A stretch of 64,000 nt of DNA from positions 702,498 to 766,497 of the forward strand of contig CBDCLS010000005.1 in NCBI GenBank assembly GCA_965218775.1, given 5' to 3'. The translations under genes and the position numbers were made by a program. Below are positions 1 to 58,109 of the stretch, one piece after another. The stretch's first letter is position 1. Each line of letters opens with the position of its first letter. The notes beneath the pieces were generated by a model. It saw nothing but the letters and a program-made list of their open reading frames with translations, had not been told where the DNA came from and did no database searches. The stretch is from Acidobacteriota bacterium (lineage in GTDB: Bacteria; Acidobacteriota; UBA6911; RPQK01; JAJDTT01).

Positions 1-464
1 TGCAAACCTATCTGGGGGGCCGAGATCCCGATCCCGCGGACGTGCCCTCTGTTTTTGTCAATGCCCAGGGCCGGCCGATTACCCGTTTTGGGATTCGCTA
101 TATTGTGCGTCGACACGGAGCCCAAGCGGCACAGAGCTGTCCTTCGATCCAAGCCAAGCGCCTCAGTCCTCACCTGCTGAGACACTCGACGGCGATGCAC
201 CTTCTACAGTCGGGCAACGATCTCAGTGTCGTCAAGGACTGGATGGGTCATGCGGATCTGAACACCACTCACGGCTATGTGGAGATCGACATGAAGATGA
301 AACGCAAAGCGCTGCAGGCCGCCGAAGCCCCTCACGTCAAAACGCCGGCCAGCCGCCGTTCCAAATGGCTCCAGCCGGGCATCCTCCAATGGCTCGATGA
401 ACTCTCAAAGGAGGCCAGTATTATGTGCAGTACTGCACCGACCTCGGCTACCGTCAAAGGTTGA
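1..464 (+). CDS. Tyrosine recombinase (third integrase of RIT copy 1), 5'-truncated by the window edge
   Basis: HLLRHS...MGH...THGY catalytic motifs. DNA 1-529 matches 12890-13418 except G42/A12931. Confidence 0.95.
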   Translation, partial: QTYLGGRDPDPADVPSVFVNAQGRPITRFGIRYIVRRHGAQAAQSCPSIQAKRLSPHLLRHSTAMHLLQSGNDLSVVKDWMGHADLNTTHGYVEIDMKMKRKALQAAEAPHVKTPASRRSKWLQPGILQWLDELSKEASIMCSTAPTSATVKG

Positions 465-529
465 CTGATGGGCATCGTAGCGATCTCAGGGAGGACCTAC
501 TTCACATAACGCAACGCTTTACATGTCAT
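1..529 (+). mobile_element. Right end of RIT element copy 1; terminal inverted repeat at 499-529
   Basis: acttcacataacgcaacgctttacatgtcat (499-529) is identical to 13388-13418; the two copies diverge immediately after it. Confidence 0.9.
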
Positions 530-3500
530 GTTCATCGCCATGACGTATTACCCAGGTGAAACTCTGAAGCAGAAGATAGAGAAGGGTCGACTGGGGACGG
601 ACGAGGCGTTGGGAATCACTCGGCAAGTGGCAGAGGGCCTGGCTGTGGCGCACCGACACGGGATCGTCCACCGGGACGTCAAGACGGCCAATATCCTCTT
701 GACCGCCGATGGAACCGTCAAAATCGTCGACTTTGGTGTGGCGAAGGTAGCCGGCGGTGATGCCACCGTGACAGGCAACGTCATGGGCACGGTGGCATAT
801 ATGAGCCCCGAGCAGGTGCAGGGCAAAGGGGTCGATCATCGAACGGATCAGTGGTCACTGGGAGTGGTCTTGTACCAGATGCTAACTGGCAAACAGCCTT
901 TCCAAGGCGAAGATATACCGTCCACTATCTCTTCCATCTTGCTCCAGACTCCGGCACCCCTGGCTCACAGCGTCGAGGACGTCCCCAAAAGCCTCCAGGG
1001 AATTGTCAATCGACTCCTGGCCAAGGATCCAGATAATCGATACGCCGACGAGGCCGAACTGATCGCCGACTTGAAGCTCTCGGCTCCAGTCGCCGTTTCT
1101 GAAGGCGTCGGGGCAAACCCGCAAGAGTTGCGACCCACGCTTCCCAACCAACTACCGACGTCTCTCACGACCTTCATCGGGCGCGAACAAGAAATAGAAC
1201 AGCTGAAGACGCTGCTTTCCCGCACCCGCCTGTTGACACTCATAGGCAGTGGGGGCAGTGGTAAAACACGCCTTGCTCTGCAGGTCGCGACCGAGGTAGC
1301 CCACGACTTTGAGGATGGGGCCTGCTTCATTGGGCTGGCACCCATCACCGATCCCAGTCTCGTGGGATCCAGCATGGCCCAGGTGCTCGGCGTTCGGGAG
1401 GCGGGCGGTGTGCCGATCCACGAGCGTCTCATGACCTTTCTGCGCGATGTGCGGGGGTTGCTTCTTCTTGACAACTTCGAGCAGGTCGTGGAGGCGGCCC
1501 CGTTGGTAGTGTCATTGCTTGAGGCCTGCCCCGGCCTCAAGGTCCTGGTCACTAGCCGGGCCCCTCTTCATGTCCAGGGTGAGCAGGAGTTTCCCGTGCC
1601 ACCCCTGGTGCTCCCCGAGGTTGGAAACCTTCCTTCACCCAAACAATTGGCCGAGTACGAAGCCGTTGCCCTTTTCTTGGAGCGGGCTAAAGCCGTTCGA
1701 CCGGACTTCAGATTAGACGATGACAACGCTACTACCGTGACCGAGGTCTGTGTCCGCCTGGATGGGTTGCCCCTGGCCATTGAGCTAGCCGCCTCCCGGA
1801 TCAAATTGCTTCCTCCTCGGGCAATCCTGACTCGGCTAGAGCATCGTTTTGACCTGCTGACCCACGGGGGCCGAGAGGTGCCGGCCCGACACCGAACCCT
1901 TCGGGAAGCGATTGGCTGGAGCTACGAGCTGCTCAACAAGGACGAGAAGAAACTCTTCCGGCGGACGGCGGTGTTTGCAGGAGGGCACACGGTCGAGGCA
2001 GCAGCAGCGGTGCACCGTGCCGGTATAGGCCAGGAGATCGAGTTGCTCGAAAGCCTCTCCTCGCTAGTGGATCAGAACCTGATCCAACAGCAGGAGCAGG
2101 AGGACGGAGAGCCTCGCTTTCTCAGGCTCGAGACCATCAGGGAGTTTAGCCTGGAGTGCCTGAGGGCAAGCGGAGAAGAAGCTACGGTTCGCCGAAACCA
2201 TCTCGGCTATTTCCTGGATTTGGCGGAGCAAGCAGAACCCTTCCTGACAGGCCCCCAACAGGGGACCTGGCTAGGCCGTCTGGCGCGGGAACAGGATAAC
2301 CTCCGCGTCGCCATGAACTTCGCACTGGAGGTCGACGATCAATCAGCCTGCCGGCTGGGTGTAGCGCTCTGGCGCTTCTGGCTTGTTCATGGGCATCTCA
2401 ACGAAGGCGGCGAACAACTGGATCAGATCCTGACTCAAGCGGGTTCTTCCATATCGGCGGCGATACGAGCCCAACTTCTCACCGGAGCTGGAACGCTGTC
2501 CCACAATCGCGGCTACTACCCTGCGGCTCGCTCGTTCTTCGAAGAAAGCCTCGCCTTCTATCGCGAGCAAGAAAACAAGCAGGGGATCGCCGACACCCTC
2601 AACAACCTGGGCTGGGTGGCGTGGCGGCTGGGCGACTATGCTCATGCTTGGACCCTCTCCGAAGAGGGTCTGGCCCTACATCGGGAGCTGGGGCAGAAAC
2701 GGGGCGCGGCCCTGGCACTGAACAATATGGGTTGGGTGGCACATGCCCGAGGCGACTTTACCGAGGCCCTCCGTCTCCACCAGGAGAGTCTGGAGCTACA
2801 GCGGAAACGAGGCGATGAGCGGGGAACAGCGTTTGCTCTGACTTGCCTGGGATGGTCGACCTACAAGCGGGATGATCCGGAAGGAGCGCGTGATCTCCTG
2901 GAGGAGGCGCAGACACTGTTCCGGCAAGTTGGCGAACGGCAACTCTTGGCGTTTTGCATCAGCATTCTGGCCGAGGTTGTCTACCATCTGGGCGACACCG
3001 AACAGGCGAGCGCCCATCTGAAGGATGAAAGCCTACCCATCTTCGGAGATATCGGCGACCGGTATGGTCTGACCGTGGCGCTTTGCGTATACGGGGACGT
3101 ACTGTGGACGGAGGGAAGTCATGAGGAGGCCAAGAAGTGTTACCAGGAGACCCTGCAGATTCGAGAGGAGATGAGTGACAAGTGGGGTACCGCCCAGTCT
3201 CTGTGTCGGTTGGCTCAGGTTGCCATAGAGGAGCACGACATCGCAGGTGCCATGAAACTGCTGAAGCGGAGTCTCATCCTGCGCCGGGATCTAGAAGACA
3301 AGTACGGGATCGCAGAATGCCTACTGGCACTGGCAGGTGCGGCCCTTCATAGTAACTTGCCGAAGAGAGCTGGATTGCTGCTTGGAGCCGCCGAGGCCTT
3401 ACGACAGTCAATTCGTGGCACGCTTTCGCCTCGCGACAAAGCGACGAGCGAACATCTCCTGACCACCCTGCCAAAGAAACTGAGCCGGAAGGCCTTCTCT

Positions 3501-3578
3501 GCCGCTCGGGCAGAGGGCTCCAAGATGAAGCTCCATGAGTCCATTGCCTGCGGCCTGAATTCGGATGACGCAATTTAA
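528..3578 (+). pseudogene. Ser/Thr kinase + STAND-type ATPase + TPR protein, N-terminally truncated by RIT insertion
   Basis: HRDVKTAN, DFG and MSPEQ kinase motifs are present, but no Gly-rich loop or VAIK lysine. Walker A GSGGSGKT, Walker B LLLLDNFE, and many TPR-like repeats. The ORF starts at the RIT end. Confidence 0.85.
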
Positions 3579-4528: not shown

Positions 4529-4559
4529 ATGCCAACCTGCTCCTTTGCTGACGCGCGGC

Positions 4560-4648
4560 TCAATCGCTGGGGGGGAGCCCGGAACCCAGGTGGAAATCGG
4601 ATGCAAGAATCTCCGCCTCGGGAAGACCCAGCTCCTTCCTGACCAGAT
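4560..4648 (-). pseudogene. 3'-terminal fragment of a MetE-like gene; direct repeat of 14479-14567
   Basis: 83/89 nt identical to 14479-14567; encodes LVRKELGLPEAEILASDFHLGSGLPPSD*; abuts the IS6 left IR. Confidence 0.85.
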
Positions 4649-9139: not shown

Positions 9140-9881
9140 TCAGTCGGAGGTGAAAGAAAAGGTGGGTTGAAATAGCGTGATGGGGGCGTCGAGACCGAGT
9201 TTTGGTTGGAGGATTTGTCGAATCACGTTGGGTTGTTCGATCATCGCGGTGATTTCAAGGGGGTGGCCACATTGGGAACATTCCAAGGGGTCGATCTCAT
9301 AAACCTTGCGCAGTAACCGTGCCCAGCTGCGACGCCGCTGCTGGGAGAAGTGCTCGGCGGCTGAGGGCTGCTCCGAGTCCGACGCCGGGGCGGCAGTGTT
9401 GACAGTGGCCCGGGTGGCGGCTCGGCGCCGTTTCCCTCGCGAGGCATTCGAATAACGGCCATAATAACGGGCGATCTGTTCTCCCCTATCTGGAATATGC
9501 GAGGTCACCAGCGCGATCCAGTCCAGGGCATCCAGGCAACGGCGGACGCCTTTGGCGCTGCGGTATTCGATCCGACCCTGCTCAGGATCGTAGTGCAGTC
9601 GGCTGGCGGCAAAACTGGGACGGAGGATATAGGCGACCAGACGCTCCAGGGCAGGACGCTCGTCGCTCTCGATGGGCCGGCCGCGATAGACGCCAAAGCC
9701 GCTGGGGTGCCAGGCGCGCAGCTTCTGGGCAAAGTCCCGACTCAGACGGCGCTGCTCATCTCCAAGACCTGATGCTGAAAAAGACGAGTGAGGACCTCAG
9801 AATCCACTTCGCCCATCGACTCCGAGCAGCCCTCGGGTGTCCAAGCAGAATCGCTGGCGAGCAGATGAAGATGAGGATGAC
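9140..9881 (-). pseudogene. IS91-like (Y2/HUH) transposase, C-terminal part, with a frameshift near 9757
   Basis: HPHLHLLASDSAW...; after the shift EQRRLSRDF...LERLVAYILRP...VTSHIPDRGEQIARYYGRYSN...WARLLRKVYEIDPLECSQCG. Confidence 0.9.
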
Positions 9882-10040
9882 ATGTGAAGCGTTGTGTTAT
9901 GTGAAGTGATCGATCTGCTTCACGCCAGAATCCTTTCGATATCGCGGCTTCGTGCCACCGGTCCGCGCTTGTACTCCACATAATTCTGGTGCATGACAGC
10001 CCTTTGGAGTCCCGCCTCTGGGACAGAAAAGGAGGTTGTC

Positions 10041-11303
10041 ATGCCCTTGGAAGATCTATTTCGTAGTCGGGAGGCCCTGAAGCGTTTTCGAATGGCGCCA
10101 CTGGGTGCGGAGATGGACCGCTTCGGTGAGTGGCTTCGCGAGCAAGGATTCTGTCGTGACGTGGTGCGCCGCCGAGTCTGGCAAGTGTCGCACTTCAATC
10201 AATACCTTCGAGACGGGGGCCTCCAAGCGGCTCGCGAGGTGGACGAAGAGCTCGCGCAACAGTTTATCGGCCAGCATCTGCCACGCTGCCGATGTGGCGG
10301 TGGGCGGCGGCGCCAACACGGGGAGGTCCCGAGGTCGGTTCGCTGCTTCTTGACGTATCTGTGCGAGCGAGATCTGCTCGCGCCTTGCCCCCAGCCGGCA
10401 TTGGAGCTACCCGGCGTTCTGGAGGAGTTTCTAGAGTACTTGAAGGGCGAAGGCGGCCGGGCTCAGAGGACGATCGATCTGCACCGCCGTTATCTGCTGG
10501 CTTTCCTGGAGGAGGTGGGTGTCGCTTCCGATCGGCAAGCTTTGGCTCAACTGAGACCGGAGCAGGTTCAAGCCGGCTTCGCCCACGTCACCGAAGGCCG
10601 GGGCAAAAGCCTCCCTCGACGCCTGCAAGGCATCTTACGCAACTTCTTCCGCTTCGCTCATCAGCACGGGTCCCTCCAGCGCGATCTGGCACAGGCCGTG
10701 CCCCCGATCCGCAGCTACCGGCTGTCGCACGTTCCCCAGGGTCTGTCCGAGCAGCAAGCCCGGAAGCTGCTCGAGGGCATCGATCGGACGACGGCCCTGG
10801 GCCGGCGCGATTTTGCCATCCTCCAACTGCTGGACACCTACGGAGTCCGAGGAGGCCAGATTCGCGCCCTCCGACTTCAAGACCTCCGCTGGAGAGAGCA
10901 GCAGATCCACTTTCCCGCCCACAAGGGAGGCAAGCCGGTGCGGGTGCCGCTGACCGAGGCAGCCGGCGAAGCCGTCCTGGAGTACCTTCGTCAGGGACGT
11001 CCGCCCGCTCCCTACCCGGAAGTCTTCTTGACCGCCAAGGCCCCGATTCACCCGCTGACCGAGCCGTCTACGGTTTCGGTGATGGTGGCCTCTCGCCTGC
11101 GCCAAGCCGGGATCGACGGATCTGCCAAAGGCTCTCATGCCTTCCGTTATGGCTTCGCCACCCGGATGCTCGCTCAGGGGCAATCCCTCAAGACGATCGC
11201 CGATCTGCTGGGGCACCGTCACATCAACAGCAGCTTCCTCTACACCAAAGTCGACCTGAGCCGGCTCCGAGACTTGCCCCTGCCCTGGCCGGAGGAGGTG
11301 TAA
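10041..11303 (+). CDS. RIT tyrosine recombinase A
   Basis: SD AAGGAGG; YGVRGGQ, HKGG, HAFRY, LGH...FLY catalytic set. Confidence 0.93.
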   Translation: MPLEDLFRSREALKRFRMAPLGAEMDRFGEWLREQGFCRDVVRRRVWQVSHFNQYLRDGGLQAAREVDEELAQQFIGQHLPRCRCGGGRRRQHGEVPRSVRCFLTYLCERDLLAPCPQPALELPGVLEEFLEYLKGEGGRAQRTIDLHRRYLLAFLEEVGVASDRQALAQLRPEQVQAGFAHVTEGRGKSLPRRLQGILRNFFRFAHQHGSLQRDLAQAVPPIRSYRLSHVPQGLSEQQARKLLEGIDRTTALGRRDFAILQLLDTYGVRGGQIRALRLQDLRWREQQIHFPAHKGGKPVRVPLTEAAGEAVLEYLRQGRPPAPYPEVFLTAKAPIHPLTEPSTVSVMVASRLRQAGIDGSAKGSHAFRYGFATRMLAQGQSLKTIADLLGHRHINSSFLYTKVDLSRLRDLPLPWPEEV

Positions 11304-11305
11304 TC

Positions 11306-12283
11306 ATGCCCCAGTCAAACTTTCTCAGCACGCTGGCCGAGCGCCTTGGTGCCTACGTCGAGTTTCGAACTCTGGGCGGCGTCGACGCCCGCGCTCAGAT
11401 CCAACTGCTGCGACCTTTCGACCGCTTCCTTCAGCAGGAAGGGTTTCAAGGGCCGTGGCCCACGCGCGATCTCCTGCAGCGCTATCTCAGCACGCTCGAG
11501 CCCCTGCACCCAGGCTCGCGCGGAAACCGCCTGGCCGTCGTGCGCCAGTTCTGTCGCTACCTGCGTCAGTTTGAACCCGAAGCTTACCTCCCGCCACGCA
11601 TCCGCTCCCTGGAGCGCCGGCCCCTACGGGTTCCCCATATCTATACCCAAAGCGAGATCCAAGCGCTGCTACAGGCGGCGCGCCGTTTGGGGCCTTCGGG
11701 CTCGTTGCGACCCCAGACTTACTGGACTTTCTTCGGACTGCTGTACACCACCGGGCTGCGTTGCGGCGAGGCCTTTGCCCTGAATCTAGGCGATCTTGAT
11801 CTGCCGCAGCAGTTGCTTTACATCCACCGGGGCAAGTTCGGCAAGTCGCGTCTGGTTCCCCTCTCGGCTTCCACCTCGCGGGTGCTGGGGCGCTACCGCA
11901 AGCAGCGTTGCCGAGCCTATCCGCGGGGATCAGACCGTCCCCTGTTCGTCACCCTCACCGGACACCGTCTGTATCATACCAACGCTGATTTTGCCCTCCG
12001 GCAATGTCTCAGCCGCTGCGGTTTGCGCGGGGGAAAGGGGTGTCCCGGGCCCCGCCTCCATGACCTGCGTCACAGCTATGCCTCGACGCGCCTGCTCAGT
12101 TGGTATCGGGAGGGCAAAGACCCGCAGGCGCTGTTGCCGCTTCTGGCCACTTATCTGGGCCATGTTAGCGTCACCTCGACTCAAGTCTACCTCCGAGCTA
12201 CGGCGGAGTTACTCGAGCAGGCCCAAGAGCGTTTCCGGGCGAACTTTCGCCAAAACATCTTGCCGAAGGGAGAAGCACCATGA
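11306..12283 (+). CDS. RIT tyrosine recombinase B
   Basis: ATG 2 nt after the A stop, SD GGAGG; TGLRCGE, GKFGK, HDLRHS, LGH...TQVY. Confidence 0.93.
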   Translation: MPQSNFLSTLAERLGAYVEFRTLGGVDARAQIQLLRPFDRFLQQEGFQGPWPTRDLLQRYLSTLEPLHPGSRGNRLAVVRQFCRYLRQFEPEAYLPPRIRSLERRPLRVPHIYTQSEIQALLQAARRLGPSGSLRPQTYWTFFGLLYTTGLRCGEAFALNLGDLDLPQQLLYIHRGKFGKSRLVPLSASTSRVLGRYRKQRCRAYPRGSDRPLFVTLTGHRLYHTNADFALRQCLSRCGLRGGKGCPGPRLHDLRHSYASTRLLSWYREGKDPQALLPLLATYLGHVSVTSTQVYLRATAELLEQAQERFRANFRQNILPKGEAP

Positions 12284-13353
12284 ACGCCACCCACCTGATC
12301 GCCCGTTTCGTCGAGGGATTTTTCCACGACTACCTCGCCGGACAAAGGGGGCTGAGTCGCAATACCATTGTTAGTTACCGGGACGCTCTGAAGCTCTTTC
12401 TCCGCTTTGCCCGTGAGCGTCTGGGCAAACCCGTCGATAAGCTCACCGTCGAGGACGTCGACCACCAAGTGGTCACCGCCTTTCTGGAGCACCTCGAAGT
12501 CTCCCGAGGCAATAGCCCTCGAACGCGCAACAACCGGCTGGCTGCCCTGCATAGTTTCTTCCGCTATGTGGGCGAACAAGAGCCGTTGCTCTTGGGCCGC
12601 TCTCAGCGCATCTGCGCCATTCCCCTGAAGCGGACCGAGCACCGAACTATCGACTATCTCGAGGATCAGGAGCTGCGGGCTCTGCTCGAGAGCGTCGATC
12701 AGAGCTCGCGAAACGGCCGGCGAGATTATGCCCTGCTCCTGTTTCTGTACAACACCGGTGCCCGGGTTCAAGAAGCGGTCGACCTCGAGCGGACCGACTT
12801 ACGTCTGGAGGCCCCGTTCCAGGTCCGCCTCACCGGCAAAGGCAACAAAGAGCGCGTCTGCCCGCTCTGGCCCGAGACGGTGGCCGCCTTGCAAACCTAT
12901 CTGGGGGGCCGAGATCCCGATCCCGCGGACATGCCCTCTGTTTTTGTCAATGCCCAGGGCCGGCCGATTACCCGTTTTGGGATTCGCTATATTGTGCGTC
13001 GACACGGAGCCCAAGCGGCACAGAGCTGTCCTTCGATCCAAGCCAAGCGCCTCAGTCCTCACCTGCTGAGACACTCGACGGCGATGCACCTTCTACAGTC
13101 GGGCAACGATCTCAGTGTCGTCAAGGACTGGATGGGTCATGCGGATCTGAACACCACTCACGGCTATGTGGAGATCGACATGAAGATGAAACGCAAAGCG
13201 CTGCAGGCCGCCGAAGCCCCTCACGTCAAAACGCCGGCCAGCCGCCGTTCCAAATGGCTCCAGCCGGGCATCCTCCAATGGCTCGATGAACTCTCAAAGG
13301 AGGCCAGTATTATGTGCAGTACTGCACCGACCTCGGCTACCGTCAAAGGTTGA
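12280..13353 (+). CDS. RIT tyrosine recombinase C
   Basis: ATGA overlap with B; TGARVQE, GKGNK, HLLRHS, MGH...THGY. Confidence 0.95.
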   Translation: MNATHLIARFVEGFFHDYLAGQRGLSRNTIVSYRDALKLFLRFARERLGKPVDKLTVEDVDHQVVTAFLEHLEVSRGNSPRTRNNRLAALHSFFRYVGEQEPLLLGRSQRICAIPLKRTEHRTIDYLEDQELRALLESVDQSSRNGRRDYALLLFLYNTGARVQEAVDLERTDLRLEAPFQVRLTGKGNKERVCPLWPETVAALQTYLGGRDPDPADMPSVFVNAQGRPITRFGIRYIVRRHGAQAAQSCPSIQAKRLSPHLLRHSTAMHLLQSGNDLSVVKDWMGHADLNTTHGYVEIDMKMKRKALQAAEAPHVKTPASRRSKWLQPGILQWLDELSKEASIMCSTAPTSATVKG

Positions 13354-13413
13354 CTGATGGGCATCGTAGCGATCTCAGGGAGGACCTACTTCACATAACG
13401 CAACGCTTTACAT

Positions 13414-13449
13414 GTCATCCCTTATGTGGAGCTCCACATAAGGGATGAC
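13414..13449. repeat. 36-bp perfect palindrome at the RIT right junction
   Basis: gtcatcccttatgtggag|ctccacataagggatgac. Confidence 0.95.
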
Positions 13450-13972
13450 TATTGAGCTCGTCGCCATAGGTCTGGATCGCCACCACCGCCCCTGGAACGG
13501 AGCCTTTGCCGAGCGCCGCCTCGGCGTTTTGGCGTAGGCTGATCCAGGCACAGCGACTGAGTTGGCCCAACAACTTACGATCTTTTCGAAAGGCCGGGCG
13601 CAAGACGCGGGGAATAGTCCAGACGTACTGGCGATGATCGACCGGTTCCAGGACTGCTTCGGTCACCCACTCGACAAAAGCGGCCACCCGCTCGCTTTGG
13701 CATGAAGGACAAAAATATCTGGTCTTGCAAGAGAACGCTAACACCGCCTGGTGCGCACATTGCGTACACTTGAGGCGGGCAAAACCGTGGCGCAAGAGGC
13801 CGCACTCCAAGAAGCGCTGAACGGTCTTCTCCACCACCGAGCGCAAGGGTCCATACTCGGATTCATAGAAATAAGGGTAACTCTCCTTGAACTCGTCCCA
13901 ATAGTCCTGCAGACACTGGAAAAAGGGGGTGCTCTCAGGATGGCGGGGCCGGTAGCTGCCGAGGGACATCAA
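13443..13972 (-). pseudogene. IS91-like transposase, N-terminal part (Zn-binding domain through ...QTYGDELNSH)
   Basis: CGLLRHGFARLKCTQC...FSCKTRYFCPSC...HRQYVWTIP motif typical of the IS91 Zn-binding domain. Confidence 0.9.
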
Positions 13973-14314: not shown

Positions 14315-14478
14315 CACACCTCCATGCTAGAGCAATTGGCTACTACGAACAAAGTACCACGCGGGGATGCCTCTCACTCAAGGTCAGCCCAACCACTGAA
14401 TATGTTGGTCAGCACTATCCCAGTTGCATGGATGAAATGGTTTCTGTTGTCGAAGCTGCTCCGTCCCTGCCCCGGAAC

Positions 14479-15654
14479 TCAATCGCTGGGAGGGAGCCTG
14501 GAATCCAGATGGGAATCGGATGCAAGAATCTCCGCCTCGGGAAAACCCAGCTCCTTCCTGACCAGATTGGTACCCTCCACCAGCGCAACGCATTTGTAGA
14601 AAGCGATCCGGCGTGAGATTCCTTCTCGTCCGAAGCCGCAATCCGACGTCACCATCAAGCGCTCCACGGGAATGTGACGCAGAGCCTTGCGGATGAGCTC
14701 AGCCACCACTTCAGGTGGCTCGACCACAGTGTTGGTGTGACTGACCGCTCCTATGGCGATCTTCTTGTCGGTGGGATACTTTTCGAAAAGCGGCAGATCA
14801 CGTCCGCCGGTGCTGGCACACTCGAATGTGATCACGTCGGCATCGAGTTCGAGCAGGTGAGGCAAGGCCGCCTCGTAACTAGGACGCTCCCAGAACAGGC
14901 TCTGCTGATTAGGATTACCCCAACAGGTATGGACCCAGATTTCGGCCTTTACCCCCTCGACCTCCCGATTGAAGGCCTCGGTAAAGAAATCCAGGTCGGC
15001 TGGGGTGGTCTTCGGATTCAAGGCGCGGAAATGGTGCTGAGGCTCCTCTACCTGGATCAGACCACAGCCGGCGGCCACCACTTCTTTCAATTCCGCGTTG
15101 ATGATCGAAGCCAGATCCATGATCAACTCGCGGTCGGAGGAATACGCCTGGTTCCACAACATGCTGGAGAGGGACTGGGCACTGATACCGCCAAACTTCA
15201 CGGGACGACCAACTAATCGCTGAGCGGCCTTCCAGACCGCGGCGTACTCAAGGGGTCCGCGTTCGAGCTTCTCCACCGCCGTAGGGGCTTGATAACCCTC
15301 CTGTACCTCCCAAAGGATCTTTCCCGGACGAAGATCCAGTCGCTCTGACCATCCGGGAGCGGTATCCCGATGTCCTTCGATGCCGGAGATTCGCTCCAGG
15401 GGATAGAAGAACCAGGACCTCCCGCCCACATCCAGGTCGAATCGGCAGTCACCATCCGTGAGTATGTCCAGCCCGGCCCGCACCTGATCATTGAGAATGC
15501 AGGCAACGGCATCCAGGTACTGTTCGCGATAACTCGCATCCGTCAATGCCAGCTTGAAGGCCCGCCCCTTGAGACTCTCCTGAAACCACTGGGGCCTCGG
15601 ATAGGAGCCGACGATTGTCGTGGGAAGCAGTGTATTCTTGGTGATTCCAAGCAT
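14479..15654 (-). CDS. Cobalamin-independent methionine synthase II family protein (catalytic domain only)
   Basis: TTIVGSYPRP, DILTDG, HTCWGN, FECA, SDCGFG Zn ligands; no N-terminal folate-binding half. Confidence 0.85.
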   Translation of the reverse strand: MLGITKNTLLPTTIVGSYPRPQWFQESLKGRAFKLALTDASYREQYLDAVACILNDQVRAGLDILTDGDCRFDLDVGGRSWFFYPLERISGIEGHRDTAPGWSERLDLRPGKILWEVQEGYQAPTAVEKLERGPLEYAAVWKAAQRLVGRPVKFGGISAQSLSSMLWNQAYSSDRELIMDLASIINAELKEVVAAGCGLIQVEEPQHHFRALNPKTTPADLDFFTEAFNREVEGVKAEIWVHTCWGNPNQQSLFWERPSYEAALPHLLELDADVITFECASTGGRDLPLFEKYPTDKKIAIGAVSHTNTVVEPPEVVAELIRKALRHIPVERLMVTSDCGFGREGISRRIAFYKCVALVEGTNLVRKELGFPEAEILASDSHLDSRLPPSD

Positions 15655-15727: not shown

Positions 15728-17134
15728 ATGGCTGATAAACGACCGAACATTCTCTGGTATTGCACCGACCAGCAACGTTTCGACACCATCGGTGCGCTGG
15801 GAAATCCCTACGTACGGACTCCAACCCTGGATCGGCTGGTGGCCAGTGGCACCGCCTTTACCCACGCCTACTGCCAGAGTCCCATTTGTACGCCCAGTCG
15901 ATCGAGCTTCATGACGGGAATGTATCCAGGCCGGATTCACAACTGCCGCAACGGGAATGACTCGTTCAACAACCACCCGAAGCTGATTTCCAAGCAGCTC
16001 GCCGATAGTGGCTATGACTGTGGAATGGTAGGAAAGTTCCACCTCCAGAGCGCGGCCAACCGCACTGAGCCTCGTCTTGATGACGGTTACCGCTACTGGA
16101 GATTCAGCCACGCCCCCCGTGACGACTGGGCCCAGGGCCATGACTACGCCGATTGGGTACGCCGCCAGGCTGGCGACCTGGACTCACTTCGGGTCGGTGA
16201 AGACAGAGTCCCATCCCATCTGCATCAGACCAAGTGGGCCTCGGACTGCGCCATCGAGTTCATCACCCAGGAAGGGGATCAACCCTGGATGTTGACGGTC
16301 AACGTCTACGATCCCCACCCACCTTTCATTCCTCCCCGAAGCTACGCGCAACGGTTCGATGCCGACTCCCTTCCCGGCCCCCACTTTCGGGACACCGATC
16401 TGCAACAACAGAGGCAGCTCGAATCCCTCGATTTCCAGACTCAGGTGAAGCCGCCCTCGGAGTTCGAGGGGCAGCAACAGCAGGCTCTGTATTATGCCAT
16501 GATCGCTCAGATCGATGATCAGCTCGAGCGGATTCTGGCCTGCCTGGAGGAAACGGGAGAGCGAGAGAATACAGTGATTATCTTCACCAGCGACCACGGT
16601 GAGATGCTGGGCGATCATGGCTTGCTCTATAAGGGCTGCCGGTTCTACGAGGGGCTGGTTCGGGTTCCCTTGATCTTCAGCTGGAAGGGCCAGATTGAAG
16701 CGGGTTTGAGAAGCAATGCCCTGGTAGAACTGATCGATAAATCGGCAACGATTCTAGACCTGGCAGGCGTCCCAGCTCCGGCTCAGCTTCAGGGCAAGAG
16801 CCTCATCCCGATCCTGAGGGGTGAAAAGCCACCGAACCACCATCGCGAATTCGTCCGCTGCGAATACTACGACGCGCTCGATTCAGCCTTCGTCCCGGGC
16901 ACCGGAGACGGAACCTTCGCCACGATGTATCGAGACCGACGCTATAAGCTCTGCCTCTATCACGGCCACCAATTGGGCGAGCTCTACGACCTCGAAGAAG
17001 ATCCCTGGGAATTCAACAATCTCTGGAACCATCCCGATCACAGCCGTCTCAGATCCGATCTAATACACGCCAGCTTCGACGCCACCATGCTGTCCTCAGT
17101 GGATGTAGGAAGCCAGCGCATTGGCCCCTACTAA
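15728..17134 (+). CDS. Sulfatase (formylglycine-dependent)
   Basis: RPNILW..TDQQR, CTPSRSS (CxPxR), GKFHL, DHGEMLGDHG. Confidence 0.93.
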   Translation: MADKRPNILWYCTDQQRFDTIGALGNPYVRTPTLDRLVASGTAFTHAYCQSPICTPSRSSFMTGMYPGRIHNCRNGNDSFNNHPKLISKQLADSGYDCGMVGKFHLQSAANRTEPRLDDGYRYWRFSHAPRDDWAQGHDYADWVRRQAGDLDSLRVGEDRVPSHLHQTKWASDCAIEFITQEGDQPWMLTVNVYDPHPPFIPPRSYAQRFDADSLPGPHFRDTDLQQQRQLESLDFQTQVKPPSEFEGQQQQALYYAMIAQIDDQLERILACLEETGERENTVIIFTSDHGEMLGDHGLLYKGCRFYEGLVRVPLIFSWKGQIEAGLRSNALVELIDKSATILDLAGVPAPAQLQGKSLIPILRGEKPPNHHREFVRCEYYDALDSAFVPGTGDGTFATMYRDRRYKLCLYHGHQLGELYDLEEDPWEFNNLWNHPDHSRLRSDLIHASFDATMLSSVDVGSQRIGPY

Positions 17135-17139
17135 GCCGA

Positions 17140-17242
17140 AACTTCATTGGCGAACGTAGCTTTGGCCTCCAGGCCGAAGTCTTATTCTTCCGAGCCTTTG
17201 GCTCGGACGGCGGCCTGGAGCCCACCGCTACGCCAGACCCAA
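17140..17242 (+). repeat. REP doublet (REPIN-like) copy 1
   Basis: GTAGC-ttggcctccaggccga...ccgagcctttggctcgg...cggcctggagcccaccGCTAC; 101/103 nt identical to the reverse complement of 57996-58098. Confidence 0.85.
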
Positions 17243-17365
17243 AGTTCCCTCGTGAATGATCCGGTTCGCAGCCGGGGGATGGGCCAACCGGAAACTTCAT
17301 CGGCAAGAAGAAGGGGTAAGAATCAGCATCTGATAGAGCGGTGTTCTACTACAAGGGTCACTGGA

Positions 17366-48152: not shown

Positions 48153-48222
48153 TGGAATCGTAGTACTGGTAGTCTACCCGTTTGTCGGACCGCGGTGCTG
48201 CCCCATTCGAGAACGAAACTTC

Positions 48223-48322
48223 GGGTCCGGCGTAGCGGTGGCCTCCAGGCCGCCGTCCGAGCCAAAGGCTCAGAGGAATAGGACTTCGGCCTGGAAGCCA
48301 AAGCTACTTCTGCAAATGAAGT
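48223..48322 (-). repeat. REP doublet copy 3
   Basis: gggtccggcgtagcggtggcctccaggccgccgtccgagccaaaggctc...cttcggcctggaagccaaagctac. Confidence 0.85.
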
Positions 48323-48328
48323 GTCATC

Positions 48329-49552
48329 TTAGATTCGCACTGCCCGTCGGGTAGCCGAGGACTCCTTGGCAGCCTCGATGATCTCCAGCATGTGGACGTT
48401 GTCCTGAATGGGAGAGGGGGCAGGAGCCCCCGTCTTGGATGCCTCCAGAAAATCCCGGAAAAGCTCCTCCGCCATGATGCCACCGTAGCCGGGAGTCTCA
48501 GGGATCTCATAGGTCTTCCGGTGCCGGCGACCGCTGATCCAGTGCCGGGCCTCGCTGTAGAGGCTAAACGCTCCCCCTGCGGTGGCAGCGTTCGCGCTCT
48601 GGTGCTGCACCGGCTCGACCAGCGGCAGGATGGAGAAGCCCTCGGTTCCGCGCATGCCTATGTAGAAGTCGTAGACGCTCTTACTTCCCTTCATGTGATA
48701 TCCCGCCTGAAACGTCCCCATGGTCCCACTCTCGAAACTCAGCAACAACAAACCGGTGTCTTCGACCGGAACTTTCTTGGGATTCAGGTTTCCCACCATA
48801 GCCATTACTTCCACCACTCGCTCCTGCATCAGACACAACACCAGGTCCAAGCAATGGCACCCCAACCAGGAGAGGATACCGGCGCCCGTCTTGGGATCGA
48901 AGAGATAGGTAGACGTGTCGCGGTACTCGAGTAGCCCGTTCAGCAGCTTGGCCTCGATGGTCATGATACTGCCCAGGGCGCCATCGGCCAGGGCCCGCTT
49001 CAAGTCCAGAACCATCGGATTGTACCGCCACTGAAGCATGGCTCCGGCTGTCACCCCCTTCTTCTCCGCCAACTCGGCCACCTTGCGGAGGTAGGATGAA
49101 TGGGTCGTCGCCGGTTTGTCGTACAAGACCGGCAAGCCGGCGGAAACAACCTGTTCCAGAATGGCTGGCGCCTGGTCGGGGCGAGCACAGACCGTTACCG
49201 CATCCAGGTCGTCTCGAGCCAGAAACCGGGCCAGATCAGTGCTCTTCGAGGCCACCTTCGAGGACTCAGCCGCAAGCTGTTCGACATCGGCGAGTTCGGT
49301 GGCGGCGCAAACATGGATTTTGCCTACCTCTGAGAGTTGATCGAGCACACGCACGTGCCCACGGGCGTGGCCGTGGCCAGAAATTGCCCCCACCACCATG
49401 GATCCGTCTGCAGCAGAACTCCCCTTGTATCTCGATGGTACGGGGCTGCCACTCACTCTCAGCGGCTCGTTTCCGGCCGCGGCCTTACTGCCGAGAGATC
49501 CAATCGCTGCCGCTGACGGCAGGGTATAGCCGAGAAAGGTACGTCTCTTCAT
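48329..49552 (-). CDS. Gfo/Idh/MocA oxidoreductase with Tat-like signal
   Basis: MKRRTFLG; DAVTVCARP, LYDKP, GILSWLGCHCLD. Confidence 0.85.
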   Translation of the reverse strand: MKRRTFLGYTLPSAAAIGSLGSKAAAGNEPLRVSGSPVPSRYKGSSAADGSMVVGAISGHGHARGHVRVLDQLSEVGKIHVCAATELADVEQLAAESSKVASKSTDLARFLARDDLDAVTVCARPDQAPAILEQVVSAGLPVLYDKPATTHSSYLRKVAELAEKKGVTAGAMLQWRYNPMVLDLKRALADGALGSIMTIEAKLLNGLLEYRDTSTYLFDPKTGAGILSWLGCHCLDLVLCLMQERVVEVMAMVGNLNPKKVPVEDTGLLLLSFESGTMGTFQAGYHMKGSKSVYDFYIGMRGTEGFSILPLVEPVQHQSANAATAGGAFSLYSEARHWISGRRHRKTYEIPETPGYGGIMAEELFRDFLEASKTGAPAPSPIQDNVHMLEIIEAAKESSATRRAVRI

Positions 49553-57995: not shown

Positions 57996-58098
57996 TTGGG
58001 TCCGGCGTAGCGGTGGGCTCCAGGCCGCCGTCCGAGCCAAAGGCTCGGAAGAATAAGACTTCGGCCTGGAGGCCAAAGCTACGTTCGCCGATGAAGTT
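57996..58098 (-). repeat. REP doublet copy 4
   Basis: Reverse complement of copy 1 with 2 mismatches. Confidence 0.85.
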
Positions 58099-58109
58099 AC
58101 TTCTCAGAT

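Follow-up and report, generated by a model that had tools for sequence, protein, structure and literature searches.

RIT elements, reportedly described by Van Houdt in 2009 and 2012 and by Ricker in 2013, carry an overlapping trio of recombinase genes, ritA-ritB-ritC, within about 3.5 kb bounded by terminal inverted repeats (IRs) of about 30 bp, and occur as identical multiple copies. The same is true of the element analyzed here, of which one complete copy (copy 2) and the end of another (copy 1) lie in a stretch of 64,000 nucleotides from an Acidobacteriota bacterium (contig CBDCLS010000005.1, positions 702,498 to 766,497), hereafter called the window; with its ordered trio, its IRs of about 30 bp and its near-identical copies it has every sequence feature of a RIT. 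For RIT ends, 'sequence variation at the ends' and an 'overlapping palindromic sequence' were noted in 2012 (PMC3414803), and imperfect palindromes of 47-51 bp, together with RIT DNA that was protected from exonuclease and gave no junction reads, were reported in 2017 (Nielsen et al. 2017; PMC5737581). In 2023 it was stated that 'no transposition of RITs ... reproduced', and the target specificity of RITs was listed as untested (PMC10214605). In the RIT literature that we read, the palindrome is assigned no function, and neither a target rule nor a mechanism is proposed. Our analyses confirmed that a perfect palindrome beside one IR of the element is a real, mobile and widely conserved part of the RIT and not host sequence. 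Its 20-bp core, hereafter PAL, most likely represents, as judged from its sequence, two back-to-back halves of a dif-like crossover site, and dif-like core sites based on PAL, together with an intermediate in which the ends are joined and short spacers are carried over, are in our judgement the best explanation of the data (probability roughly 0.65). The exact sequence of PAL was found in no searchable paper; new are also the dif-like 11-6-11 reading, the presence of PAL at either end, the exact conservation of a 20-mer across phyla, the lack of a target duplication and the inheritance of spacers.

The systems closest in layout are Xer/dif and its users, the integrative mobile elements exploiting Xer (IMEXs) and the phages CTX and VGJ, which share with the RIT the 11-bp arms (..CATAA/TTATG..) around a 6-bp centre and the Xer-like recombinases. 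The dif site of E. coli, GGTGCGCATAA-TGTATA-TTATGTTAAAT, consists of 11-bp arms around a 6-bp centre, at the edges of which XerC and XerD cut. IMEXs have partial spacer homology and a one-sided exchange that is finished by replication (PMC5357621). Unlike these users of Xer/dif, the RIT encodes its own three recombinases, its two cores are fused through a shared palindrome and its targets are not dif. In Tn916, coupling sequences from the donor flank are carried along and no target duplication is made. The RIT resembles Tn916/Tn1545 and Tn554/SE elements in that it appears to carry about 6 bp of donor flank (five spacer matches on the correct IR) and makes no target duplication, whereas elements of the Tn916/Tn554 type have asymmetric ends and a single joint and the RIT has inverted-repeat ends and a joint with a palindromic module that would alternate between the ends. 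In Tn554 and SE elements 6 bp are carried from donor to recipient and a heterologous overlap is tolerated (PMC10214605). Telomere resolvases likewise use a perfect palindrome as substrate and have the tyrosine-recombinase fold, but they cut 6 bp apart across the dyad to give hairpins, while the half-sites of the RIT face away from each other and the exchange would fall outside PAL. The circle junctions of IS3, IS30 and IS911 (right IR-spacer-left IR) also present abutted inverted ends as an active transposition intermediate; those elements depend on DDE transposases and make target duplications, whereas the RIT would use a conservative tyrosine recombinase and a junction with an extra 20-bp palindrome.

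Copy 2 interrupts an IS91-family transposase gene, the two sides of which are referred to as T1 and T2. Its left and right IRs (IRL and IRR) are complementary at 26 of 28 positions, and its features are the following.

9140..9873, - strand: remainder of the IS91-family gene (T2, begins CATCTTCATCTG), degenerate
9874..9879, + strand: spacer at the PAL-less (IRL) end, AGGATG (CATCCT outward), the IS91 target's own His-Pro codons
9880..9907, + strand: IRL, with outer arm ACATGTGAAGC (9880-9890), GTTGTG and inner arm TTATGTGAAGT (9897-9907)
9975..9983, + strand: third arm-like motif TCCACATAA within the left end, in opposite orientation, with mirror partner TTATGTGCA at 13310-13318
10041..11303, + strand: ritA, tyrosine recombinase of 420 aa, Pfam Phage_integrase
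11306..12283, + strand: ritB, tyrosine recombinase of 325 aa, Pfam Phage_integrase
12280..13353, + strand: ritC, tyrosine recombinase of 357 aa, Pfam Phage_integrase, overlapping ritB by 4 bp
13388..13415, + strand: IRR, with inner arm ACTTCACATAA (13388-13398), CGCAAC and outer arm GCTTTACATGT (13405-13415)
13416..13421, + strand: inner spacer CATCCC between the outer arm of IRR and PAL, centre of the core GCTTTACATGT-CATCCC-TTATGTGGAGC
13422..13441, no strand: PAL, 20-bp core TTATGTGGAGCTCCACATAA = TTATGTGGAG/CTCCACATAA, two putative back-to-back recombinase half-sites
13442..13447, + strand: outer spacer GGGATG (CATCCC seen from the target side), putative recombinant joint with the IS91 target
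13448..13972, - strand: N-terminal part of the IS91-family transposase gene (T1), NF033538 transpos_IS91, 89 bits

The top NCBIfam matches of RitA, RitB and RitC were XerC/XerD models, that of RitA being below the cut-off and RitC being the most Xer-like, and a tblastn search paired the order ritA-ritB-ritC with RITs of many genomes and plasmids.

Beginning two bases within the IRR of copy 2, the perfect palindrome extends over 36 bp from 13414 to 13449 (GTCATCCCTTATGTGGAG/CTCCACATAAGGGATGAC), with 18-nt arms that are 100% complementary and free of gaps. No palindrome of comparable quality was found elsewhere in the 64-kb window, and its 22-mer centre is unique there even when up to 3 mismatches are allowed and had 0 matches in 100 shuffles. 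The motif TTATGTGRA occurs six times in the window against 0.43 expected, every time in the RIT ends or in the palindrome, and GGATGAC is present at the left junction of copy 2 too (9875-9881). An earlier note on the window, made from its sequence alone, had described the palindrome, the IR motifs, GGATGAC and the right end of copy 1, and all these statements hold on re-computation. The palindrome owes its full 36 bp solely to a chance likeness between the IS91 target (..AGT CATCCT..) and the tip of the IR with its spacer (..TGT CATCCC..). By our own estimate a perfect 18+18 palindrome is expected by chance in 64 kb with a frequency of about 1e-6. Fold-back chimeras can create palindromes, but the same structure is found in independent assemblies and in isolates of many phyla; the recurrence in independent assemblies excludes the assembly artefact of which the earlier note had warned, and an origin by artefact or chance is exceedingly improbable. 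It is also very improbable that the palindrome is a transcription terminator or a regulatory hairpin of ritC or of the IS91 gene. As single-stranded DNA it folds into a stable hairpin with a stem of 16 bp (-17.5 kcal/mol, z = -7.6), and it lies 60 nt past the stop codon of ritC, but there is no T-run, no terminator call and no Rfam match, and the promoter reading was negative too; moreover, many copies have the palindrome upstream of ritA, its position alternates between the ritA and ritC sides, and across phyla its DNA sequence has been conserved whichever way it is oriented.

Comparison of the unit formed by the outer arm of the IR, 6 bp and one half of PAL with the dif site showed that the two agree in layout and polarity. 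As in dif, CATAA and TTATG are turned towards the spacers, about 15 of 22 arm positions are identical to E. coli dif, and the core of the window has its counterpart in L036, a locus found in the genome scan described below (GCTTCACATAA-CGCGAC-TTATGTGGAGC). The 11-6-11 layout of the IR in copy 2 was found in 64 other RIT ends among the matches listed. Since the halves of PAL point outward, PAL would serve the two flanking spacers and not its own centre, which argues against a reaction of the telomere-resolvase type at the dyad.

Exact look-ups of RitA and RitB in metagenome assemblies revealed the same RIT at eight further loci, L148 being added by the RitB look-up, and at least six of its sites are present in sample ERZ25067264. 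Identical copies bring PAL into at least seven unrelated targets; the PAL-bearing targets named are two IS91 genes (IS91-a and IS91-b), an amidase gene, a DUF7933 gene, the 5' region of a methyltransferase gene and a kinase gene, and with these six kinds of target the proposal of the earlier note that the centre of the palindrome is not host sequence and travels with the element is borne out. PAL lies 6 bp from IRR in the window and in L004 (amidase gene), L006, L007 (the same IS91 locus in another sample) and L009, and 6 bp from IRL in L001 (another IS91, opposite orientation), L002 and L148; with copy 1 included, the side is IRR in five loci and IRL in four of this window RIT family. PAL is always on the 5' (T1) side of the target's CA-spacer, in agreement with its earlier placement upstream of the target gene.

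Joining of the two IS91 gene halves of the window as T1 + CATCCT + T2 yielded ...YGDELNSHPHLHLL with an intact HUH motif, and the inserted DNA is thus CATCCC + PAL + GGGATG + RIT, without target duplication. Deletion of spacer, PAL, spacer and RIT likewise reopened the frames in five targets (IS91-a, IS91-b, amidase, DUF7933 and methyltransferase), the full-length reconstruction of L148 being frameshifted downstream and hence unused; these restored frames and the empty kinase site described below are free of target duplications. Copy 2 sits at the His-Pro-His-Leu-His codons of the IS91 transposase gene, and both spacers flanking its PAL are the canonical CATCCC. The frame of the N-terminal part (13448..13972) reads into PAL and stops in GGGATGA. 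The IS91-family gene struck by copy 2 is itself decayed, its frame ending less than about 45 codons past the restored HUH motif and its C-terminal zinc-finger part (9140-9873) being in a different frame; no intact IS91 paralogue was present among the fetched loci. Exact look-ups of excision footprints, of kinase alleles with a solo PAL and of a native amidase gave no match, which is uninformative.

According to the earlier note the palindrome acquires target-specific arms. For copy 2 this did not stand, given that the same CATCCC/GGGATG arms, outer spacer included, are present at the unrelated targets of L004, L009 and L002; the match to IS91 (CATCCT, 5 of 6 positions) therefore reflects the choice of site and not acquisition. 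The part that is acquired appears from the spacer sequences to be the 6 bp of the previous donor site, which end up between IR and PAL.

The nine independent targets of the window RIT family all have CA at the start of the PAL-less-end 6-mer and CAY at the start of the hexamer that follows; the third hexamer begins with CAY in 6/9. CAY with a period of 6 bp is what His-x-His-x-His codons give, which would explain the repeated hits in the HUH motifs of IS91 genes, three different IS91 paralogues having been struck by this family. Insertions of a related RIT sublineage were found after ..(L/I)M-x-N-H-(Y/I) codons of short N-terminal fragments (L047, L103, L113, L117, L070, L052, L042, L105, L087 and L040; flank beside PAL), and these fragments gave sub-threshold Pfam Y1_Tnp (IS200-like) matches ending at the HUH motif. 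RITs seem repeatedly to disrupt the genes of rival HUH transposases. A likeness of T1 to the arms of the IR or of PAL (GAGCTC...; TTGAG) was too weak to be claimed, three of the T1 sequences being those of IS91 paralogues. The flanks of L009 (at about 9834 and about 13378) are hybrid: PAL is bordered by a third IS91 paralogue, and the opposite flank comes from the region downstream of a kinase/TPR gene. When joined they restored no frame, and L009 is probably a rearrangement between two RIT copies.

The spacer 6-mers of the window RIT family, written outward from the IR arm or from T1 to PAL, are given below; the outer spacer lies between T1 and PAL and the inner spacer between PAL and the IR named.

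Window copy 2: outer CATCCC, inner CATCCC (IRR), PAL-less end CATCCT (IRL)
L007: outer CATCCC, inner CAACTA (IRR), PAL-less end CATCCC (IRL)
L001: outer CACCCC, inner CATCCC (IRL), PAL-less end CATCCC (IRR)
L002: outer CATCCC, inner CACGAA (IRL), PAL-less end CATCCC (IRR)
L004: outer CATCCC, inner CATCCC (IRR), PAL-less end CAGCGA (IRL)
L006: outer CATCCT, inner CAGTGT (IRR), PAL-less end CATTAG (IRL)
L009: outer CATCCC, inner CATCCC (IRR), PAL-less end CACGAA (IRL)
L148: outer CATCCC, inner CATCCT (IRL), PAL-less end CAGTGT (IRR)
L008: no outer and no inner spacer, CAACTA at both ends
Window copy 1: PAL-less end CATGTT (IRR); left junction CATCCC-PAL-AGGATG from a protein match

Each non-canonical inner spacer is identical to the PAL-less-end spacer of another locus at the same IR. 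Four of the five donor-recipient pairs come from the same sample, namely L148 to L006 (CAGTGT), L009 to L002 (CACGAA), L008 to L007 (CAACTA) and copy 2 to copy 1 (CATCCT), the fifth being the window-type IS91-a to L148 (CATCCT); in the pair L148 to L006 the donor's old inner spacer CATCCT returns as the outer spacer of the recipient. By our own estimate the chance of four such matches is below 1e-6. The element's spacer is found on the T1 side in copy 1, L004, L148 and L006, and the reverse pattern in L001. The near-even split between inherited and canonical spacers and the two T1 patterns would fit an exchange at both edges of the spacer followed by segregation of the heteroduplex, and the spacer swaps place the exchange, indirectly and at the level of sequence, within +/-2 nt of the edge between IR arm and spacer and at the edge between spacer and PAL. 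In L007, which is the IS91 locus of the window in another sample, the inner spacer is CAACTA for CATCCC and the PAL-less end CATCCC for CATCCT, CAACTA being the flank of L008. These 6-mers would fit a first occupant that left with CATCCT (now in L148 and window copy 1) and a re-occupation from L008. Of about 13 other lineages, 8 have the same 6-mer as outer spacer and at the PAL-less end, which is what a shared crossover region would give; in L036, L037, L063, L064, L077 and L111 all three spacers agree, and in L113 and L119 the inner one alone differs.

The two flanks of L008 (RIT at 9840-13375) repeat each other in inverted orientation for about 8 kb, with 99.9% identity and differences by indels only, so that the locus is a fold-back of the form A-RIT-A' without PAL. 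It represents either an assembler fold-back from coexisting RIT orientations, that is in-place inversion, or a real inverted duplication. A fold-back of this kind is expected if both orientations coexist, and it bears on the view that PAL is fixed and changes sides solely by in-place inversion of the RIT between its IRs, without integration through an alternate core. An intact core (PAL half-spacer-IR arm) does stay beside the integrated element, inverted relative to the other end, yet inversion is unable to place the donor's foreign 6-mer between IR and PAL at a different locus and leaves new insertions unexplained; as the sole cause it is quite unlikely, while in-place inversion probably occurs in addition to transposition.

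The left end of copy 1 provided a blind test of the model. Copy 1 enters the window with its right part only:

1..526, + strand: 3' part of RIT copy 1 (3' end of ritC and IRR), entering at position 1 of the window; outer arm 516-526
527..532, + strand: CATGTT, the spacer at the right, PAL-less end of copy 1, sequence of the kinase gene itself
528..3578, + strand: Ser/Thr kinase gene without its first approximately 170 codons, the T2 side of the copy-1 target (1016-aa truncated kinase)

Over the shared 528 nt the two copies differ at a single nucleotide (window 42 G vs 12931 A), which changes RitC from ..ADVPS.. in copy 1 to ..ADMPS.. in copy 2 (V to M); an exact look-up of the copy-2 RitC protein with this private change gave no record elsewhere. 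The right end of copy 1 (499-526) matches copy 2 through ...ACATGTCAT and continues with GTTCATCG, without palindrome. Locus L011 is the true empty site of copy 1: it carries an intact kinase of 1185 aa and reads GCAGGACT-CATGTT-CATCGCC, without PAL. Since the filled right junction is IRR-CATGTT-CATCGCC, the PAL-less end abuts the unaltered target. At L011:6833-6845, outside the window and 50 nt upstream of the insertion point, the intact kinase gene contains CATCCTTATGTGG (codons His-Pro-Tyr-Val), which is similar to the element's spacer with the first bases of PAL (CATCCCTTATGTGG), perhaps as a natural pseudo half-site close to the chosen target and perhaps by coincidence.

Because the left end of copy 1 lies outside the window, it was tested by exact look-up of predicted read-through proteins in a collection of 15 billion proteins. 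The junctions of the model consist of kinase T1 (..GGACT), CATCCC, PAL, then GGGATG or AGGATG, then IRL; read-through proteins were built for these two, for kinase-specific arms (CATGTT/AACATG), for two mixed junctions and for two PAL-less ones. The predicted 181-aa kinase/PAL fusion ...ETNAGLIPYVELHIKDDM (CATCCC-PAL-AGGATG) was found exactly, on one contig of 2,498,293 bp, and the 1016-aa truncated kinase of the window sits on a contig that is likewise 2,498,293 bp long, while six alternative junction proteins were all absent from the collection. Copy 1 therefore carries PAL at its left end, where the DNA is predicted to read GCAGGACT CATCCC TTATGTGGAGCTCCACATAA AGGATG ACATGTGAAGCG. The earlier note had foreseen the palindrome at this end, with arms matching the kinase core; the palindrome is there, and the kinase arms are not, the arms being CATCCC and AGGATG. 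Since the IRL-side spacer of copy 1, CATCCT, is the IS91-derived 6-mer at the IRL of copy 2, its donor would be copy 2 or the same allele.

A hairpin route resembling that of telomere resolvases, with linear hairpin-capped intermediates, was considered by Nielsen et al. (2017) and in the earlier note. It would account for a perfect palindrome exactly at the element boundary and for the exonuclease-protected RIT DNA without detectable circle junctions (PMC5737581), and two metagenome records, L150 and L149, have long fold-back palindromes centred on PAL. On the contrary, the half-sites face outward with TTATG beside the spacers, so that the cores lie beside the dyad and not on it, and spacer swapping maps the exchange to the edges between IR arm and spacer; end-switching of PAL and trapped donor 6-mers are predicted by joining of ends and not by hairpin capping. 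Profile matches revealed Xer-like recombinases only and no protelomerase-like gene, and a palindromic circle junction of about 100 bp would itself escape paired-end read mapping. The hairpin route thus finds no support in the junctions and is decidedly unlikely.

Scanning of one genome per species for the exact 20-mer revealed PAL in at least 115 genome stretches from many phyla. Among the matches listed, to which the counts of this paragraph refer unless plasmids are named, the groups were Beta-, Gamma-, Alpha- and Deltaproteobacteria, Verrucomicrobiota, Planctomycetota, Acidobacteriota, Nitrospirota, Firmicutes and Myxococcota, and a ritABC trio adjoins PAL wherever the fetched piece is long enough, with identities to the window proteins of 24-53% for RitA, 32-63% for RitB and 34-67% for RitC. 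In these other lineages PAL was found at the ritC end of the element in 23 cases and at the ritA end in 15, and it is present at both ends, with all four spacers identical, in two RITs, L013 (2307, 5516) and L126 (2544, 6060); L024:4283 has an exact PAL at one end and the variant palindrome TTATGTCGAGCTCGACATAA at the other. The layout arm(11)-6-arm(11)-6-PAL-6 was conserved in 64/64 IR-adjacent PALs outside the window RIT family, while the IR arms themselves vary (..CACATAA, ..CAACATAA, ..CGCATAA, ..CAGATAA). On either side of PAL, the 6-mers mirror each other perfectly in 34 of the 64 (chance 1 in 4096), and most of the remaining pairs match at 4-5 of 6 positions. As this set was chosen by an exact PAL match and is thus biased, 12 plasmid RITs were taken by protein similarity alone. 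The exact 20-mer was found in 0/12 of them; a lineage-specific perfect or near-perfect palindrome of at least 20 bp is present at one end in 8/12, for example TTATGCCGATATCGGCATAA, TTATGTTCAGCTGAACATAA, AAATGTGCTGCAGCACATTT, TTATGTGGCACGCCACATAA and CTAATCCCGAACTCGGGATTAG. The halves of the plasmid palindromes resemble the IR arms of their own element and vary with them, TTATGCCGAT/ATCGGCATAA going with ..GGCATAA arms and CTAATCCCGA/ACTCGGGATTAG with ..CGGGATAA arms. A palindrome at one end is thus a general feature of RITs, of which the version in the window is a very widespread allele.

At least 20 solo PALs have at least 1.5 kb on both sides with no Rit gene and no IR arm (e.g. L017:1589, L026:6255, L033:1836 and L076:3414). 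Among the matches listed, eleven have inverted 6-bp arms, mostly TCGGCC-PAL-GGCCGA in Betaproteobacteria, and two have direct 6-bp repeats by strict count (L034:5573 and L049:2258); L030:6941, inside an IS91 gene and too near the locus end for the strict count, has direct 6-bp repeats likewise. Solo PALs may be excision footprints or landing pads. At L052:3110 a solo PAL joins two facing N-terminal fragments of Y1 transposases (..VLMENHY, PAL, then the reverse complement of ..CLMTNHI), as if two IS200-like genes, each occupied by a RIT, had recombined with each other. The solo PALs, the few that interrupt genes between direct 6-bp repeats, as a tiny insertion and its duplication would (L030, L034, L049), the two RITs with PAL on both sides and the form of PAL itself, an IRL-type arm plus an IRR-type arm, would all suit a PAL that is an independent miniature element or landing pad, beside which RITs insert as a PAL-less IRR-6-IRL circle that occasionally co-mobilises it. 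This is nevertheless unlikely. In the window RIT family PAL is present at every newly occupied site examined with both ends readable, and those targets were without PAL whether reconstructed or seen empty; a donor flank spacer between IR and PAL at the next site requires PAL in the joined intermediate, and the copy-1 junction was predicted from a model with PAL in that intermediate.

The preferred reading, dif-like cores based on PAL and a joined-end intermediate, would operate as follows. The halves of PAL (TTATGTGGAGC and its complement) would be half-sites for one of the three Xer-like Rit recombinases, each half forming a dif-like 11-6-11 core with a 6-bp spacer and the outermost 11-bp arm of the IR. 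In the mobile form the ends would be joined through PAL as IRR arm-spacer-PAL-spacer'-IRL arm, a long palindrome with two mirrored cores, either of which could recombine with a target of the form T1-CANNNN-CAY...., and the element would therefore enter the target in either orientation. The term 'orientation adapter' of the earlier note is fair in this respect, since an element with inverted ends gains a directly oriented pair of half-sites. PAL would land on the T1 side of the target, attached to the IR that was not used, and no target duplication would be made. Strand exchange would occur at both edges of the 6-bp spacer with tolerance of mismatches, and in consequence the 6 bp flanking the PAL-less end would be carried off at excision and re-emerge between IR and PAL at the next site, like the coupling sequences of Tn916 and Tn554. 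Excision would join the PAL-less IR and its flanking 6 bp to PAL; were the other core then used for the next integration, PAL would change ends at each such hop. The circular form, the positions of cleavage and the assignment of proteins to sites are what we infer from these junctions.

Several points weigh against this reading. Xer-type enzymes normally need spacer homology and several targets share only 'CA' with the element, so that either heterology would have to be tolerated in the exchange or replication would have to finish it. A pattern of PAL between IR arms matched 0 of 148 loci, 0 viral contigs and two of 241 million metagenome records (L149 and L150), neither of which is convincing. 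L150 (1-102) has a perfect fold-back of about 100 bp at the start of the contig, followed by a ritA-like gene, and its symmetry runs 8 nt past the IR, so that an artefact or a head-to-head arrangement is more plausible here than IRR-PAL-IRL. L149 (1012-1075) has a perfect palindrome of 54 bp, the flank side of which carries one additional outer arm. Assemblies are not expected to contain transient circles. A palindromic joint of about 100 bp is hard to assemble or map, which may explain RIT DNA that is protected from exonuclease and gives no junction reads (PMC5737581). The copy-1 junction is supported at the protein level only, by 12 diagnostic residues that do not distinguish IRL from IRR; the donor-recipient links rest on 6-mers with 4 free positions, in metagenome assemblies that possibly mix strains; the solo PALs need a second, less regular mode of excision; and part of the anatomy may have been described already in Ricker et al. 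2013.

A wider proposal is offered tentatively, at somewhat less than even odds: that RITs in general move by a joined-end intermediate whose palindromic junction of about 100 bp holds two mirrored dif-like cores and one 20-bp module shared across phyla; that mismatch-tolerant hops shuffle 6-bp coupling sequences, so that the module alternates between ends and the spacers record the itinerary; that the three recombinases divide among themselves the PAL half-site, the outer arm and the accessory arms; and that CAY with a period of 6 bp makes the HUH codons of IS91 and IS200-like genes hotspots.

Two further repeats in the window are unrelated to the RIT. One, of 112-116 nt, is present in three copies (17131-17246, 48217-48334 and 57996-58109) that are 88-95% identical, one of them inverted, and contains an imperfect hairpin of 27 nt; the other is a direct repeat of 115 nt with 87% identity (4534-4648 vs 14453-14567).

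RIT elements are widespread, being found in many phyla, on genomic islands and on catabolic plasmids, and 590 plasmid records match RitC; the cited literature since their description in 2009 contains no demonstration of their movement, of their targets or of the need for three recombinases. The window and its sister loci amount to a natural transposition experiment, from which dif-like core units of 28 bp, a palindrome that would be an obligatory passenger and a target rule can be read. The model has already foretold the unseen junction of copy 1, it would explain why circle junctions were missed in mobilome data, as a palindromic joint evades read mapping, and with it a question open since 2009 becomes directly testable. 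Spacers would be usable to order transposition events within a genome and solo PALs as markers of past RIT activity, and for genome engineering a compact system of Xer-like type, with insertion in both orientations, may be of interest.

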